A stretch of 30,932 nt of DNA from a virus (IMGVR_UViG_2529293142_000025:1-30932); one strand, 5' to 3'; counted from the first letter of the stretch, positions 6,374 through 30,561 are shown. The notes: a model not told the origin generated them from the letters alone. Numbers and translations: made by a program.

Positions 6374-6717
6374 ATCAGACTGCTCACCGTCCCGCGCCGG
6401 ACATTCTGGAGGTGCCCGACAGCAAGCTCTTTCCAGTTCTCGGGATTTACCAGCCGCACATTCCCGTTTTCATCTTCAGGATGCAGAATCGTGATGCTCA
6501 TCCCTTCGAATGAGGCAAGCGTGGCCGGATGGAATACCTGCTCAGGAGAACGCGTGACGACTATTTCACCGAACTTATCGGGTTTCAGTTTTGGCAGGTC
6601 ATCAGCACCATAGAGCTGCTTACCTGTTCGTCCTATCGGCACGTCTTTGCACAGCAACGAGCCGTCAGCCAGCTGATAGCGGGTTTCCCCCAGCCGGGTA
6701 TTGAAAAAATATTTCAT
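6370..6717 (-). CDS. phage head-assembly protein (may belong to the same gene family as the adjacent ORF)
   Basis: 115 aa ORF, ATGA overlap with the 149 aa ORF. Confidence 0.35.
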
Positions 6718-13800: not shown

Positions 13801-13875
<75 letters not shown>

Positions 13876-13878
13876 ATA

Positions 13879-13954
<76 letters not shown>

Positions 13955-14317: not shown

Positions 14318-14929
14318 TTAAAGCTGCATCAGCCTTTCCACCAGTTTATCTCTGCGAACAACAAACCAACCATTGGCTCTCGCCAGTTCCAGCCATGACT
14401 CAAGGGAAATAACAATATCATCATCCCGCAACTGAATTGTGGAAACAGTGACACCGCCTCGCTGATAACAGAGAACTCGCGTGTCGTAACTTTTCTGGCA
14501 TGAAGCTGGCGCTGACAGATCCTTTTGTCTGAAATAGCAGTCTTCCAGTTTTTCGAACACATCCCACGCCTGATCGGTTTCGAGCATTTTGGCGTGACGG
14601 GCTGCGCCTCGTTCTGTCCAGAGGATAAGGGAGCGGGCTTTCGGGGAAATTTGTAACCCTCTTAAAGATGGTTGCAAATTTTGTGAGTTACTTAAAGTAA
14701 CCCGCAAATTTTGTGAGTAGTTTAAAGCTACCCGCAATTCTTTAAGGTCATTACCAACAACTTTGAAAAAGTGTTTCCCTTCAACGAAGCGTGCTTTGTT
14801 CTCATGATGATTCTGGCGAATACGCACCGGCTCAGTGCCGTAAAGCTGCGCCAAAAGTTCGGTGGTAATAACAGGAATCTGGTTATGGGTGATAGGGGAG
14901 AGAGTTTCAACAGAAATTTGAGTTGTCAT
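14318..14929 (-). CDS. antirepressor-like DNA-binding protein (KilA-N/ORF6N-type, Roi-like)
   Basis: 203 aa; N-terminal ...LLAQLYGTEPVRIRQNHHENKARFVEGKHFFKVVGNDLKEL and ...SLILWTERGAARHAKMLETDQAWDVFEKLE resemble the two halves of the KilA-N/ORF6N fold; first gene after the late promoter. Confidence 0.5.
   Translation of the reverse strand: MTTQISVETLSPITHNQIPVITTELLAQLYGTEPVRIRQNHHENKARFVEGKHFFKVVGNDLKELRVALNYSQNLRVTLSNSQNLQPSLRGLQISPKARSLILWTERGAARHAKMLETDQAWDVFEKLEDCYFRQKDLSAPASCQKSYDTRVLCYQRGGVTVSTIQLRDDDIVISLESWLELARANGWFVVRRDKLVERLMQL
14671..14733. repeat. about 30 bp tandem direct repeat (2.5 copies) inside the roi-like gene
   Basis: GGTTGCAAATTTTGTGAGTTACTTAAAGTAACC / CGCAAATTTTGTGAGTAGTTTAAAGCTACCC / GCAATTCTTTAAGG on plus strand. 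Confidence 0.7.
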
Positions 14930-15090
14930 AATGACGCCCTCTGGTGGTTTCTTAATAACTCACCACCGACGACGCCAATCGTCTGGTGGTGAACTGTGCA
15001 GGGTTGGCGTAACCGGGAAACCGACCGGCGCGGATCTCTCCGCCCCCACACAGCCCACCATAATTCAGATGTGCGCGTGCATACGACAAT

Positions 15091-15112
15091 AAAAAACACG
15101 CTCGCGGCGTGT
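15091..15112 (-). terminator. tR-prime-like terminator downstream of late promoter
   Basis: minus-strand hairpin ACACGCCGCGAGCGTGT followed by TTTTTTATT. Confidence 0.5.
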
Positions 15113-15173
15113 ATCTGTCGCGGTCTCTATCCAGGACGCCAATCCCGACGCCAGATTTTGCTGGCGCGTGAGG

Positions 15174-15203
15174 AATATAGCCCCGGATAACAGATTGAGT
15201 CAA
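15174..15203 (-). promoter_or_regulatory. late promoter (pR-prime-like), Q-dependent antitermination region
   Basis: minus strand TTGACT, 18 nt spacer, TATATT; the -35 overlaps the Q stop codon, as in lambda. Confidence 0.5.
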
Positions 15204-16711: not shown

Positions 16712-16963
16712 CTAACAGGATGCTCTGACTCGCAATTCATCCAGCAGTTTATCATTTCCCATAATGTCACTTACCCTCATCGGTAAAAAAATTGCCTTTC
16801 GACCATTACGATACATCATTGATTTTTTAGTTTCAGGGAAGTAATCCATTTCGACTATAACTGACAGGTCATCACGACGTATGACTGCATATTTGCTACT
16901 AAATAGTTTCTTTATTTTTTCCACGATGCCTCCAGGTTTATAAGTACAAACGGTTATATCCAC
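16712..16963 (-). CDS. hypothetical protein in AT-rich island
   Basis: 83 aa ORF with GTG start and no clear SD; low GC context. Confidence 0.25.
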   Translation of the reverse strand: MDITVCTYKPGGIVEKIKKLFSSKYAVIRRDDLSVIVEMDYFPETKKSMMYRNGRKAIFLPMRVSDIMGNDKLLDELRVRASC

Positions 16964-17105
16964 ATAGAGACAAAAATATTAATCTGAAAAATATTTATTT
17001 CACGTCGTATATTTGATTATTTAATGTGCAGGTGCAATGACTTTTATTTTTGTTGTGTATATAATCAAATATATGGTTATTTTTCACCCTGCGTATTCAG
17101 CGCGC

Positions 17106-17129
17106 AACAAAAAACCCGCCGAAGCGGGT
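17106..17129 (-). terminator. Rho-independent terminator of hok transcript
   Basis: minus-strand hairpin AACCCGCTTCGGCGGGTT followed by TTTTTTG. Confidence 0.55.
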
Positions 17130-17198
17130 TAAGTGCGGGTGCGTTGAGGATGCCTGACACATCAGAGGTGGCGAGGGATTTCTCCCTCGCCTGGTCTC

Positions 17199-17354
17199 TT
17201 ACTCCTCAGGTTCGTAAGCTGTGAAGACAACGACCTCCGTCTGGCCGGTTCGGATTCGTACCTCGCAGAGGTCTTTCCTCGTTACCAGTGCCGTCACAAT
17301 GACGGTTAAACAGATGACGATCAGGGCGATTAACATCGCCTTTTGCTGCTTCAT
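17199..17354 (-). CDS. hok: Hok/Gef family type I toxin
   Basis: 51 aa MKQQKAMLIALIVICLTVIVTALVTRKDLCEVRIRTGQTEVVVFTAYEPEE; an in-frame upstream mok-like extension starts at 17411; structured leader with inverted repeats at 17451-17490. Confidence 0.8.
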   Translation of the reverse strand: MKQQKAMLIALIVICLTVIVTALVTRKDLCEVRIRTGQTEVVVFTAYEPEE

Positions 17355-17542
17355 AGCCTGCTTCTCCTTGACCTTTCGGTCCGTAAGAGGCAATCTATAT
17401 GTGTCTAGCATATAGGGGCCTCACTTCGATTTATAGTCGGGTGGGGCTTTTATCTATCTGCCGTTGGTGTTCATGCCTGAGGCAGATAGCCTCAAGCACC
17501 CGCAGCAATTCTACTTAACTCTCCTTTTCCCGCAAACCGTTT

Positions 17543-17626
17543 TTATCCCCAGCGGCAAATCGAATACACCACCAGCGCCACCGCCATCGCAATTCCTACC
17601 GTTGTGAATGCTTCAGGCCAGGTCAT
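17543..17626 (-). CDS. 27 aa hydrophobic peptide
   Basis: MTWPEAFTTVGIAMAVALVVYSICRWG; strong SD GGAGGTGA; ATG overlaps the TGA of the upstream gene (ATGA coupling). Confidence 0.3.
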   Translation of the reverse strand: MTWPEAFTTVGIAMAVALVVYSICRWG

Positions 17627-17988
17627 TGATTCACCTCCTGCGGTGGTTCAGGCAACGCTTCCAGTGATGCTTTCACAAACCACGCGGCCTGAACTATTAC
17701 GTCATGAATCCAGCGCAAATCAGCCTCGCGATCTTTCTTTTTCATCTTTTCGCCACTTAAAGCCTGGCTTATGTGGCTGCGAACCAGGTTTTCATGTAAT
17801 TCCTTCGCATCCTCAATGGTGAAACCACCAGGCAGGCGAGCCGGAGCTACCGGAGAGTTGCCAGCCTTACGCATGGCCATTTCCACGATTTCAACCATAT
17901 CTCCTGGTGGAATTTTACAAAGTTGCCCAATACATTTCTGCTGCCTGGCATATTCGAGAATGTGCTCCAGTTTGGTTCGATTAATCAT
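17623..17988 (-). CDS. nin-region hypothetical protein
   Basis: 121 aa ORF coupled to neighbours on both sides. Confidence 0.4.
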   Translation of the reverse strand: MINRTKLEHILEYARQQKCIGQLCKIPPGDMVEIVEMAMRKAGNSPVAPARLPGGFTIEDAKELHENLVRSHISQALSGEKMKKKDREADLRWIHDVIVQAAWFVKASLEALPEPPQEVNQ

Positions 17989-18401
17989 TATTTATCTCCC
18001 TTAAGCATGGCGGCGCGGCAGGCGTTCCAACCATCAGCATATGTTTCAGTTACACCGTCGAGATGGCAGGTAAGCAAATCCATTTCATCAGGCACTACCA
18101 TCGCTGGCGGCGCTGCGTAAAGCGGTGTTATTTCTGCCCGAAAATCACCGACTTTATGCAGTCGCACCCAGCGTTCGGCTTCTGCTTTGTCAGAATACAT
18201 AGCGGTGAACGTATTATATTCATGGTCAATTTGCGTGAAGGTTGCCTTCCACGCCACCGGTTCTGCTTCCAGCGATGCCAGCGCGATACGAAACACATTA
18301 GCAAGCAGGCTGTCTGAAGATTGGTTATCGTGCGCCGCGTCGCTCAGGAAACCAGTGATGAATGATTTAATCTCCGCGTTTTCTCTGAAAATAGTGATCA
18401 T
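17988..18401 (-). CDS. nin-region hypothetical protein
   Basis: about 137 aa from ATG 18399-18401, which lies 1 nt after the upstream stop. Confidence 0.4.
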   Translation of the reverse strand: MITIFRENAEIKSFITGFLSDAAHDNQSSDSLLANVFRIALASLEAEPVAWKATFTQIDHEYNTFTAMYSDKAEAERWVRLHKVGDFRAEITPLYAAPPAMVVPDEMDLLTCHLDGVTETYADGWNACRAAMLKGDK

Positions 18402-18402
18402 A

Positions 18403-18621
18403 TCAGTTCTCCTTATACGGATTAATTTTATTGTGCAGTGTGTTGAACGAGGCCCATACCACGTCGTTATACAATTCAATAACTGGCTCAATTATTTTCC
18501 CGATTACCCAGACAAAAATTAGCGGGGATATCGGTATCATCAACACGATAAACAGAATGAGAAACAAAAATTCTGTCGCTCTACTTTTTCGCGGATATTC
18601 TTTTCTGAATAATGCAGTCAT
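18403..18621 (-). CDS. small membrane protein
   Basis: 72 aa with hydrophobic segment FLFLILFIVLMIPISPLIFVWVIG. Confidence 0.4.
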   Translation of the reverse strand: MTALFRKEYPRKSRATEFLFLILFIVLMIPISPLIFVWVIGKIIEPVIELYNDVVWASFNTLHNKINPYKEN

Positions 18622-18713
18622 TTATTACCGCCCTTTCGGGCGGCCTCCTGATGTTTTGAGGGTGCAGAAATCCCTCCGGTTAAGGATTAAATTTTTAACA
18701 GCGCTAAATTTAA

Positions 18714-19070
18714 TTATTCAGTTCTGGATTTTGTCGCCCTACGTATCCGCGCTTTCGCGTTACGCTCAATCTGAATTAACTTTTCTATATTTTTCCGCCT
18801 TTCTTGCTCCTCCTGGCGCAATAACCTTACATCATCTGCCAGTCTGGTTTCTCTTTTAGCCACAGAGAGCATCCAGTCAAACGGCTCCACAACTGCACCG
18901 CAGATTTTACAGCGGACCTGACGCTCTTTTTCGTCAACCTGGACAGAAGCGTGATGACAATATGGTCTTTCCGATGGCTCATAAAGAAAATTAACCTGAT
19001 TACGCGGGTCATCCTCTTTTACCGGAAATAAAACAATATTACTTAACTCATCTTCTGGTTTTATTCCCAT
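18714..19070 (-). CDS. nin-region hypothetical protein with Cys/His cluster
   Basis: 118 aa from ATG 19068-19070 with AAGGAGAGGAG SD; CHH...C..C pattern. Confidence 0.4.
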   Translation of the reverse strand: MGIKPEDELSNIVLFPVKEDDPRNQVNFLYEPSERPYCHHASVQVDEKERQVRCKICGAVVEPFDWMLSVAKRETRLADDVRLLRQEEQERRKNIEKLIQIERNAKARIRRATKSRTE

Positions 19071-19512
19071 ACTCCTCTCCTTTGATGTGAATGCCAGCAA
19101 CACGTAGTGCATGTTCTAAGTCAGCCAGATAAAGCCAGCAGCCATTTTCTTTAGGTATCATGACGTGGCGCTCATCATCATTTATCGGATGTCCATATCG
19201 AAGGCCGTAGCGAGTCGGCAAATGAACTTCCCGCGCTTCCAGCTCTTTAACACGTTCCTCGAGTTCGTAGACTCTGCATTGTTCTTTATCATCAATCAGA
19301 TATAACCCAAGACATTCGCTTTCTACCCAGCCACCGAAATCATGATCGTAACGCTCACACGAAAACTCACCATCGCTGTCCTTTGTTGGAATGGTGTAAC
19401 TGTCTAATGGGCCGCCATACGTCGGCACATTTCCCAATGTCGGATGCTCAATCCACATGAAAAATGCACGTCCGGTTATAGGACAAATATCTGGTCGCCA
19501 TTGGTTACTCAC
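19048..19512 (-). CDS. nin-region hypothetical protein
   Basis: about 154 aa from GTG 19510-19512, 6 nt after AGGAGG. Confidence 0.4.
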   Translation of the reverse strand: MSNQWRPDICPITGRAFFMWIEHPTLGNVPTYGGPLDSYTIPTKDSDGEFSCERYDHDFGGWVESECLGLYLIDDKEQCRVYELEERVKELEAREVHLPTRYGLRYGHPINDDERHVMIPKENGCWLYLADLEHALRVAGIHIKGEEYGNKTRR

Positions 19513-19804
19513 TGTTTGCCTCCTGGAAAATAACTGCATGCCCCAGTTTCTCCGCCAGCGCCAGTTCTGCCTTAGCACCTGCTGACCGCTGCCAGCCTTT
19601 CAGCATGTAAATCGCATCCACACAACGAATCATTGCCATGCAAATATCCATGTAGTGTGGCTGTGTCAGTCCGTCCGGAAGTACTGCCGGGTTTAAGACT
19701 GTATGCCCTTCCCGTTTCAGTTCCTCTTCCGCCTTGTGGAACGCCTCACGGTTGAAATTTTTATATCCGGTCATTGGACCGGCGATATAGACTCTCACCC
19801 TCAC
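19505..19804 (-). CDS. nucleoside 2-deoxyribosyltransferase-like protein (DUF4406-like)
   Basis: 99 aa beginning MRVRVYIAGPMTG...; family assignment from memory. Confidence 0.4.
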   Translation of the reverse strand: MRVRVYIAGPMTGYKNFNREAFHKAEEELKREGHTVLNPAVLPDGLTQPHYMDICMAMIRCVDAIYMLKGWQRSAGAKAELALAEKLGHAVIFQEANSE

Positions 19805-28380: not shown

Positions 28381-28587
28381 ATGACAAAAATTATGAGATA
28401 TGACGATGTTAAACCATGTCCGTTTTGTGGTTGTCCATCTGTTACAGTGAAAGCAATTTCAGGATATTACCGGGCAAAATGCAACGGATGCGAATCCCGA
28501 ACTGGCTATGGTGGAAGTGAAAAAGAAGCACTCGAAAGATGGAATAAACGAACTACTGGAAATAATAATGGAGGTGTTCATGTATAA
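28381..28587 (+). CDS. ralR: restriction alleviation protein RalR/Lar-like, Cys4 zinc-ribbon
   Basis: MTKIMRYDDVKPCPFCGCPSVTVKAISGYYRAKCNGCESRTGYGG...; start at internal ATG 28381. Confidence 0.6.
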   Translation: MTKIMRYDDVKPCPFCGCPSVTVKAISGYYRAKCNGCESRTGYGGSEKEALERWNKRTTGNNNGGVHV

Positions 28588-28768
28588 AATAACTGCCACT
28601 ATTGAAAAAGAAGGTGGCACTCCTACTAACTGGACAAGATATTCAAAATCTAAATTAACGAAATCAGAATGCGAAAAAATGCTCTCAGGGAAAAAAGAAG
28701 CAGGCGTGTCCAGAGAGCAGAAAGTAAAGCTGATAAATTTTAATTGCGAGAAACTTCTGTCCTCGTGA
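28580..28768 (+). CDS. ydaC: YdaC-like small protein
   Basis: 62 aa MYKITATIEKEGGTPTNWTRYSK...; GGAGGTG SD 5 nt upstream. Confidence 0.55.
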   Translation: MYKITATIEKEGGTPTNWTRYSKSKLTKSECEKMLSGKKEAGVSREQKVKLINFNCEKLLSS

Positions 28769-30245: not shown

Positions 30246-30348
30246 AAAAAAGACCGGAATACAGAAATTCGAGTAAATTTCGAGTAATTTCGGGGAGACG
30301 TTTGCAACTAATTGATTTTAAATACAATTAAAAAAAGACCGAATACGA
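30246..30348. repeat. imperfect direct repeat AAAAAAGACCG(G)AATAC (30246-30263 and 30330-30348) flanking 11 bp tandem TTCGAGTAA units; candidate att core/arm sites at the prophage junction
   Basis: the second copy is the 3-prime half of the SdsR terminator; the first lies 86 bp toward int. Confidence 0.4.
30301..30328 (+). promoter_or_regulatory. sigma-70 promoter for RyeA
   Basis: TTTGCA, 16 nt spacer, TACAAT. Confidence 0.45.
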
Positions 30349-30432
30349 TTCCTGTATTCGGTCCAGGGAAATGGCTCTTGGGAGAGAGCCGTGCGCTAAA
30401 AGTTGGCATTAATGCAGGCTTAGTTGCCTTGC
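30330..30432 (-). ncRNA. sdsR: SdsR (RyeB) small RNA
   Basis: about 103 nt on minus strand starting GCAAGGCAACUAAGCCUGCAUUAAUGCC..., ending in hairpin GACCGAAUACAGGAAUCGUAUUCGGUC plus U7; sigma-S-like -10 TCTATTCTTAA just upstream; identity from memory. Confidence 0.6.
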
Positions 30433-30561
30433 CCTTTAAGAATAGATGACGACGCCAGGTTTTCCAGTTTGCGTGCAAAATGGTCAATAAAAAGCGTGGT
30501 GGTCATCAGCTGAAATGTTAAAAACCGCCCGTTCTGGTGAAAGAACTGAGGCGGTTTTTTT
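30336..30561 (+). ncRNA. ryeA: RyeA (SraC) small RNA, antisense to SdsR
   Basis: plus-strand transcript predicted from the TTTGCA/TACAAT promoter to the terminator at 30521-30561; fully overlaps sdsR on the opposite strand. Confidence 0.45.
30521..30561. terminator. bidirectional Rho-independent terminator (RyeA on plus, yebY on minus)
   Basis: hairpin AAAACCGCC...GGCGGTTTTTTT with U-tracts on both strands. Confidence 0.55.

Follow-up and report, generated by a model that had tools for sequence, protein, structure and literature searches.

A closely packed four-gene block beside hok/sok in an Escherichia coli lambdoid prophage: probably a mosaic accessory array, ending in a conserved micro-protein gene

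Does a run of four short genes, packed end to end next to a toxin-antitoxin locus, constitute one dedicated system, or is it a stretch of exchangeable accessory genes that share a transcript? The question is raised by positions 17543-18621 of a 30,932-nt stretch of viral DNA (the whole of which was analysed, and is called the window below), where four ORFs, here named A to D, can be read from the sequence of the minus strand. The window is an E. coli lambdoid prophage. Along its minus strand a cro-like gene, YdaT, a DnaT-domain O-like protein and a lambda-P-like protein are followed by DUF977, DUF4406 and two small ORFs, then by genes A, B, C and D and by sok/hok, then by an 83-aa ORF, DUF1367, YbcO and a DUF1133 Q-like protein, and finally by C4/isrK RNAs, an ORF6N antirepressor and tRNAs. 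The block lies between the replication genes on one side and hok/sok with the Q-like antiterminator on the other, and occupies the nin-equivalent interval of the rightward early operon. Its placement upstream of hok, given in the first-pass annotation, holds, as Pfam Hok_Gef (17199-17411) and Rfam sok (17352-17501) follow it directly. A simple scan of 16900-19300 finds a single full terminator-like site on the coding strand, after hok (17130-17113, a 7-bp stem with a T-run), while weaker 5-pair matches in the same scan are located at 17247-17231 and, inside B, at 18164-18149.

The lambda nin region (ninA-ninI) consists of many small, overlapping and dispensable genes between the replication genes and Q, and the block, which fills the equivalent interval from the replication genes to the Q antiterminator, similarly consists of small overlapping genes. 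The likeness does not extend to the genes themselves: a Pfam scan gives no lambda nin family for any of A-D, in agreement with the earlier remark that none of them resembles a nin gene.

All four ORFs are present on the minus strand at the lengths first described (72, about 137, 121 and 27 aa). Gene A (18621..18403, 72 aa) and gene B (18401..17988, 137 aa) both start with ATG, the latter at 18401; gene C (17988..17623) encodes 121 aa and gene D (17626..17543) 27 aa. A mechanical ORF list places the start of B at TTG 18491, but this candidate was rejected, as it would create an 89-nt overlap with A and homologues begin at the ATG. The junctions read TGAtATG between A and B (TGA at 18405-18403, ATG at 18401-18399), TAATG between B and C, and ATGA between C and D, and each start has a strong Shine-Dalgarno (SD) match 6-7 nt before it (AAGGAG, GGGAGA or AGGAGGTGA). 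The tight coupling that had been described is thus present; the overlaps of 1-4 nt that were ascribed to the junctions are found at B/C (1 nt) and C/D (4 nt), whereas A and B are separated by a 1-nt spacer.

Several comparisons show that these are genuine genes. The exact sequences of all four proteins are deposited in public E. coli assemblies, and among the eight contigs that were fetched via the exact sequence of B, five are 100% identical to the window over a 2.1-kb region (17100-19200) and the remaining three are about 97% identical. Wherever divergence is measurable, dN/dS stays below 1 for all four genes: 0.34 for A against the allele of locus L016, 0.55 for B, 0.23-0.48 for C and 0.09-0.57 for pairs of D (at dS of 0.3-1.5), the near-identical pair of B and its SE11 counterpart, with 5 differences, being uninformative for this purpose. 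Judged from sequence comparison, the four-ORF block exceeds chance and its genes are real and under purifying selection, although values of 0.3-0.55 indicate a constraint that is only moderate.

Gene A is a DUF4014 small inner-membrane protein. It matches Pfam PF13198 (DUF4014) over its full length (residues 1-72 on profile positions 1-72, E=1.1e-26, 93.4 bits against a gathering cut-off of 23.2) and phrog_1832 at E=9.5e-46; it is 94% identical to the 933W (L0067) and Sakai copies and 53% identical to epsilon15 gp46, and no feature sets it apart from the rest of the DUF4014 family (PHROG 1832). In epsilon15, the DUF4014 gene is likewise flanked by an Ead gene and a DUF551 gene. The protein has a basic N-terminus, one hydrophobic segment of about 24 residues (mean Kyte-Doolittle hydropathy 2.96 over residues 19-37) and a 30-aa polar tail, and D also has one hydrophobic segment (residues 7-23, mean 2.11), so that the computed hydropathy bears out the earlier description of both as membrane proteins. 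A literature search found no papers on DUF4014, no source paper for the labels ‘released from the phage upon host infection’ and ‘(sugar) acetyltransferase inhibitor’ attached to it, and only unrelated papers for 933W locus tags.

Immediately before A there is a junction element (18619..18650, minus strand) made up of AGGAGG, a hairpin and TAATAA-ATG, in which the hairpin, a 7-bp GC stem with a GAAA loop (GCCGCCC-GAAA-GGGCGGT), is found in both the MFE and the centroid fold. The element occurs once in the window. With 1-2 substitutions, the same element stands before DUF4014 in four other loci (L001, L002, L003 and L010), and it is not present where the upstream gene couples directly to DUF4014 (L011 and epsilon15). 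It is possible that the element is a split ribosome-binding site.

The protein encoded by B is soluble and acidic (pI 4.75, net charge -9). A helical leader at its N-terminus runs to a RIALASLEAEP linker; further on are a conserved core, M2 (residues 49-97, window 18111-18257), and a C-terminal tail ending in ...DGWNACRAAMLKGDK. M2 (VAW...LYAAP) contains most of the 32 invariant columns in the alignment of B. No Pfam hit above cut-off is obtained for B, and its PHROG matches (phrog_5117, phrog_660 and phrog_60) are all classed as function unknown. The AF2 model reaches a mean pLDDT of 65, with about 82 in a beta-beta-alpha-beta core, and a fold search with this model of low to medium confidence returned no match. 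There are 2372 homologues of B, many of which carry a C-terminal DUF551 that is missing from B itself. In the RefSeq annotation of strains 401651 and SE11, PGAP calls a B homologue a pseudogene (‘incomplete; missing C-terminus’), a mislabelling of an intact gene as truncated that arises because longer fusion forms dominate its family.

Gene C encodes a protein near neutral in charge and predicted to be all-helical, with an N-module (residues 1-44), a conserved core, M4 (residues 52-110, window 17659-17835), and a 10-residue tail, LPEPPQEVNQ, with which DUF551 proteins end too. Of the 39 invariant columns in the alignment of C, nearly all fall within M4 (LPGGFT...WFVKASLE). Like B, C has no match in Pfam or NCBIfam. 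A profile search over 1.84 billion cluster representatives returned only 210 relatives, and the AF2 model (pLDDT 55) was too poor for a fold search. Compared with SE11, about 213 nt, corresponding to the DUF551 core, are missing from C between window positions 17660 and 17667, with an 8-nt overlap at the joint where SE11 has the extra sequence. A one-off deletion of DUF551 from C was considered and set aside, since the same ending is common in other contexts, M4 and the tail being seen behind several unrelated N-terminal contexts. When ten long M4-containing hits were scanned, seven had a Pfam domain, and this was only ever Ead_Ea22 and/or DUF551. The end of C also forms the C/D junction linker (17624..17652, minus strand; CCTGAACCACCGCAGGAGGTGAATCAATGA), which encodes PEPPQEVNQ* plus the SD and the ATG of D, and 16 nt of which (CGCAGGAGGTGAATCA) precede D in 55 of the 141 D loci assessed.

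Most homologues of B and C are longer proteins annotated as ‘DUF551 domain-containing’, which match 74-100% of B or 55-98% of C before running into DUF551. Short linker motifs (RIALASLEAEP, LYAAPPxxVVPDE, DGW[NI][AS]C and LPEPPQEVNQ) connect the cores with heads and tails that are interchangeable, and both M2 and M4 are near-invariant across the fusion contexts; for example, M4 stands downstream of an Ead_Ea22 domain in P0320, and two proteins of 285-291 aa (P0271 and P0274) combine the body of B, the M4 module of C and DUF551 in a single chain. On the operational grounds of shared modules and linker motifs, B and C belong to the Ead/Ea22-DUF551 mosaic pool, of which they are stand-alone internal modules. 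The fusions found in some E. coli proteins make it probable that B and C cooperate or share a target. The domains that define the pool are not detected in either protein: there is no match to DUF551 (PF04448, about 68 residues, GWISCSERMP...THWMPLPEPP) at E<=1 and no Pfam hit to Ead_Ea22 (PF13935, an N-terminal coiled coil), and when the profiles of B and C are aligned by hhalign to lambda Ea22 and epsilon15 Ead, the probability does not exceed 0.2%. The remnants of DUF551 are ‘DGWNAC’ in B and the last 10 residues of C. The label of unknown function that had been given to the block therefore fits the biochemical role of its genes, but not their families, which are recognisable for A (DUF4014) and for B and C (the Ead/Ea22-DUF551 pool).

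The same gene pool includes lambda Ea22, the Ead proteins of P22 and epsilon15, the V1-V3 forms of Ea22 in Stx phages, and L0139/L0140 of 933W. Ea22 proteins are themselves mosaic, with an Ead_Ea22 head and a variable or DUF551 tail, and are pro-lysogenic (PMC10834534, PMC7093339); in their mosaic, early-expressed and non-essential character they resemble the pool proteins related to B and C. However, Ea22 proteins are located in the exo-xis region, whereas B and C are in the rightward operon at the nin position, and the Ead/Ea22-DUF551 proteins carry PF13935/PF04448, whereas B and C have neither. Another point of comparison is CPS-53 of E. coli K-12, where YfdT has an N-terminal leader and an IALxSLExEP linker in common with the B family (hhalign E=1e-4, probability 56%, 42 columns) and ends in ...QQEVK, resembling the tail of that family. 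YfdS, a DUF551 protein, is encoded directly upstream of YfdT with packing as tight as in the block. The likeness is partial, as YfdT has the leader and the linker but not the M2 and M4 cores, and gene D is missing from CPS-53. When over-expressed, yfdQRST inhibits the initiation of replication, and the phenotypes reported for YfdS/YfdT are hda-185 suppression and H2O2 sensitivity (PMC4776307).

The last gene of the block, D, encodes the peptide MTWPEAFTTVGIAMAVALVVYSICRWG, and several lines of evidence argue that it is a real gene for a single-helix membrane micro-protein. Full-length D is found by tblastn in 93 phage records at 59-100% identity, and a scan of viral contigs with a degenerate DNA pattern detects at least 120 stretches that contain it; pooled, the D loci amount to at least 144 copies, with at least 28 protein variants and at least 50 DNA variants. 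The length is exactly 27 codons across these protein variants, as it is in nine loci that were inspected and in six distinct versions from phage loci, one of which has an internal stop. Two kinds of lesion have been seen: phage POCJ13 has a version with W3 changed to a stop, and in the E. coli locus L001 a T-to-G change abolishes the stop of C and the start of D together. The invariant frame of the peptide can be written as M-x-W-P-[ED]-A...Y-S-x-[CF]-R-W-[GRW]. Codons 12-20 of the transmembrane segment specify hydrophobic or small residues almost throughout, with hydrophobic residues replaced by hydrophobic ones, and both other reading frames are closed in 50 of 50 sequences among those pooled. 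Over the at least 50 DNA variants, pN/pS is 0.57, computed at the codons left free by the degenerate pattern with which the variants were collected. The boundaries of the 85-nt D module coincide with the ends of the ORF.

The way in which D is attached to its neighbours is equally regular. An ATGA overlap with the upstream ORF is present in 119 of the 141 D loci assessed (84%) and occurs behind at least three unrelated C-terminal classes (...EPPQEVNQ, ...ISVEDILR and ...NIEQEVNR), each of which has GGAGG within its last codons. Downstream, 48 of 114 loci (42%) have hok within 0.7 kb, while elsewhere D precedes other genes, ParDE, or xis/int, and it is also found in virulent Vequintavirinae phages. 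With the degenerate pattern, a scan of one genome per species detected D in no genus other than Escherichia and Shigella, apart from two very small contigs that probably represent contamination. Of 5426 complete E. coli genomes, 1752 are matched by a 151-nt query that spans D together with its junction, and in 955 of these the match covers at least 80% of the query, with up to 9 places per genome; in other words, about one complete E. coli genome in three to five has the stretch, often more than once.

Despite this distribution, D is rarely annotated. PGAP leaves it uncalled in both of the intact loci that were checked (ETEC6333 and SC407), the gene calls recorded on the eight contigs with the exact sequence of B also omit it, and a few GenBank records contain it, as a hypothetical protein. 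D is not found in Pfam, NCBIfam or PHROGs, and a literature search for its peptide strings found them in no paper. The NCBIfam model for KdpF (TIGR02115) scores 14.7 bits against D, below its cut-off of 26.85; Hok_Gef has no Pfam match in D or in A; and simple scans of 16900-19300 detected no promoter-like site within or beside D on either strand. The assignment of D to a cluster led by a 121-aa DUF551 protein was dismissed as a clustering artefact, as the two have no shared sequence. In size and in having a single hydrophobic helix, D is comparable to KdpF, AcrZ, MgtS-type regulators and Hok, a likeness that we take to be one of size and hydrophobicity only. Tentatively, and with rather more doubt than belief, D may be regarded as the founding example of an unrecognised family of phage membrane micro-proteins, which would act on a host inner-membrane protein, in the manner of KdpF, AcrZ or MgtS-type peptides, or would bracket the array together with DUF4014 as a unit anchored in the membrane.

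Whether A, B, C and D belong together can be judged from how they are combined in other prophages, and here the idea of a single four-gene module finds no support. In a relative that is 97% identical, A has 24 differences in 216 nt, B and C have one each (in 411 and 363 nt) and D has 4 in 81 nt; these per-gene counts, with an allele swap confined to A, imply recombination joints at gene boundaries. In SE11, A and B are separated by an additional gene and C carries a DUF551 domain, and in ArgO145, ETEC6333 and SC407 the order is A, an HNH gene, other content and D. Across the 89 D loci with enough upstream sequence, DUF4014 is found within 2.5 kb upstream of D in 36 (40%), at a spacing of 529-1393 nt, DUF551 in 48, M2 in 12 and M4 in 6. 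The exact combination A-B-C-D does occur on at least three prophage backbones, but the recent spread of one mosaic version fits this observation as well as functional linkage does.

We therefore regard it as probable, with appreciable room for doubt, that the block is a mosaic array of co-transcribed and translationally coupled accessory genes and not a fixed four-part system. A delayed-early rightward operon, at the nin position, would draw cassettes from a pool of ‘ea’-type accessory genes, among which B and C would be expressed alone, without a coiled-coil head or a DUF551 tail, and D would habitually close the array. The near-zero spacing of the genes may arise from short conserved linkers, each encoding the last residues of one cassette, a ribosome-binding site and the start codon of the next; such linkers could both couple translation and serve as joints for the exchange of cassettes between phages. 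The sequence comparisons show that the genes consist of exchangeable cassettes and that the short junctions between them are conserved linkers in which stop, SD and start are combined. Genes A-D are presumably expressed early after induction, by read-through from pR, and their translation is presumably coupled. By analogy with Ea22 and YfdS/YfdT, their products may be non-essential protein-binding modulators of host physiology or of the balance between lysis and lysogeny, a role that we prefer to that of anti-phage effectors, although for B and C this is a weak analogy, as they lack the defining domains.

The first-pass annotation had speculated about superinfection exclusion or defence, and a dedicated anti-phage module would be one in which membrane proteins A and D flank the soluble B and C, with ratios fixed by translational coupling. 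Tight coupling, two membrane components, preservation of the exact block on at least three backbones, the presence of DUF4014 upstream of D in 40% of D loci and a position adjoining a toxin-antitoxin hot spot (occupied by hok/sok in this prophage and by ParDE or HicAB in relatives) can all be arranged in support of such a module. The searches are not kind to it: the defence-system finder PADLOC-DB 2.0 gives zero hits for A, B, C and D at E<=1, sequence searches of the PDB with A, B and C give none below E=0.1, and no match of A-D in Pfam, NCBIfam, PHROG or PADLOC indicates superinfection exclusion. In addition, the genes assort independently, with allele swaps in A only and with HNH or other genes in place of B and C; D occurs without A in 60% of loci, as well as in Vequintavirinae and beside xis/int; and the start codon of D has been lost in L001. 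A defence module is accordingly a very improbable reading. Quite improbable too is that the block is debris in a cryptic prophage, in which B and C would be decaying remnants of DUF551 genes and D a chance ORF. The ‘incomplete; missing C-terminus’ label on the B homologue in 401651 and SE11, the lack of the roughly 213-nt DUF551 core in C relative to SE11 (with the 8-nt overlap at the joint), and the fact that D goes uncalled by PGAP in two intact loci and is left out of the gene calls on the eight B contigs would be in keeping with decay. Yet every frame is intact and has a strong SD site, dN/dS is 0.23-0.55 where divergence is measurable, and endings that lack DUF551 are shared by many proteins whose N-termini are unrelated: ...GWNACRAAMLKGDK is found in proteins of 136-143 aa, and ...EALPEPPQEVNQ in P0052, P0053, P0055, P0057, P0059, P0070 and P0078. 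For D, the constant 27 codons over at least 28 variants, the conservative exchanges between hydrophobic residues and the closure of the other frames likewise tell against a chance ORF.

A third reading, which we consider unlikely, although less so than either of these, is that B and C are counter-defence or host-takeover proteins that inhibit a host restriction or abortive-infection component, the shuffling of modules then reflecting an arms race. Many anti-restriction proteins are small and acidic, as is B; the genes lie in a hypervariable stretch of accessory genes and are presumably transcribed early, the modules are extremely diverse around conserved cores, and relatives are found in virulent phages. 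A screening study of phage accessory genes (PMC12373910) also lists DUF551 genes, in its Supplementary Dataset 6, with the column value ‘94’, which cannot be reliably mapped to orf94. In the supplements of the same study, however, neither the term DUF4014 nor sequence fragments of A-D were found, the PDB searches with B and C and the fold search with the model of B matched no known anti-defence protein, and experiments on relatives indicate effects on lysogeny and replication (PMC7093339, PMC4776307).

If the block is a mosaic array, as we consider probable, what looks like a defence island beside a toxin-antitoxin locus would be ordinary lambdoid mosaic cargo, and a false lead would be largely removed; the tight packing would follow from the shared linker sequences. 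A belongs to a known family (DUF4014), B and C represent new arrangements in a mosaic family already known, and D is a mildly new item, a conserved but rarely annotated micro-protein gene. For B, the pseudogene label that PGAP attaches to an intact gene is corrected here, and the fusions of B and C in other strains lead to a testable prediction of joint action. D, a conserved gene of 27 codons in the prophages of many pathogenic and commensal E. coli, including Stx phages, that is seldom annotated, is the part worth testing, and would be a cheap experimental target.

The homologues of gene B (137 aa) in E. coli 401651 (locus L001, 7151-7297) and SE11 (locus L002, 6394-6540) are intact, yet RefSeq/PGAP labels them as pseudogenes ('incomplete; missing C-terminus') and leaves the 3′ two-thirds of the gene without annotation, likely because the top family matches are longer fusion proteins with a C-terminal DUF551 domain. 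At the junction of genes C and D in the E. coli 401651 locus, a single T-to-G substitution in the ATGA overlap (at approximately locus position 6522) abolishes the stop codon of C and the start codon of D at once. Gene D is thereby lost, and C reads through into a 130-aa protein (P0258, seen on 9 contigs).

The 90%-identity protein cluster of peptide D (27 aa) has as its representative an unrelated 121-aa DUF551 protein. This looks like a clustering artefact in which incomplete sequences or read-through products, P0252 (GGESMTWPEAF...) among them, linked the two. When a degenerate DNA pattern for gene D was scanned over one genome per species, the only matches outside Escherichia/Shigella were on very short contigs from assemblies of two unrelated species, one of 431 nt (Xanthomonas pisi) and one of 369 nt (Acinetobacter idrijaensis), and both most likely represent contamination of these assemblies by E. 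coli phage DNA.

The DUF4014 gene A is preceded on the minus strand (18619-18650) by a leader element in which a GC hairpin (7-bp stem, GAAA loop) separates AGGAGG from TAATAA-ATG, the ATG being the start codon of A. The hairpin would place the Shine-Dalgarno sequence near the start codon, possibly forming a split ribosome-binding site. Four other loci carry the same element 5′ of their DUF4014 gene, differing by one or two substitutions, and a second copy in the ArgO145 locus (L003, 5077-5110) lies 5′ of another small gene. Immediately upstream of A, an ORF of 132 aa (18714-19112, minus strand; 118 aa if an internal MGIKPEDE start is used) overlaps the 3′ end of the preceding ORF (19048-19578). 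Its product belongs to phrog_1621, contains a zinc-ribbon-like motif (CxxC...CxxC) and weakly matches the TFIIB Zn-ribbon.

Beyond gene D lies a complete hok/sok-type locus (17113-17540, minus strand), comprising mok/hok (17199-17411, minus), sok (Rfam match, 17352-17501) and a terminator (17130-17113, minus). It shares 87% identity with 933W hokW/sokW, with homology running on through gene D, and TTGCGG-N17-TAGAAT, just 3′ of the D stop codon, is likely the hok promoter.

Towards the left end, a RalA antitoxin sRNA (28586-28764) indicates a Rac-type ralR/ralA locus. As it is followed by the host sRNA pair SraC/RyeA and SdsR/RyeB (30326-30470), the prophage-chromosome boundary is suggested to lie between the two. 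Elsewhere in the window, Rfam matches to a C4 antisense RNA, to the a1/b1 site that it targets and to isrK (14982-15180, minus strand) lie directly upstream of an ORF6N-domain protein (14318-14929, minus), and phage-borne tRNA-Gly(TCC) and tRNA-Thr(TGT) genes lie side by side downstream (13801-13954, minus). C4/isrK and the ORF6N gene constitute an antisense-controlled antirepressor module of the P1/P7 style within a lambdoid prophage.
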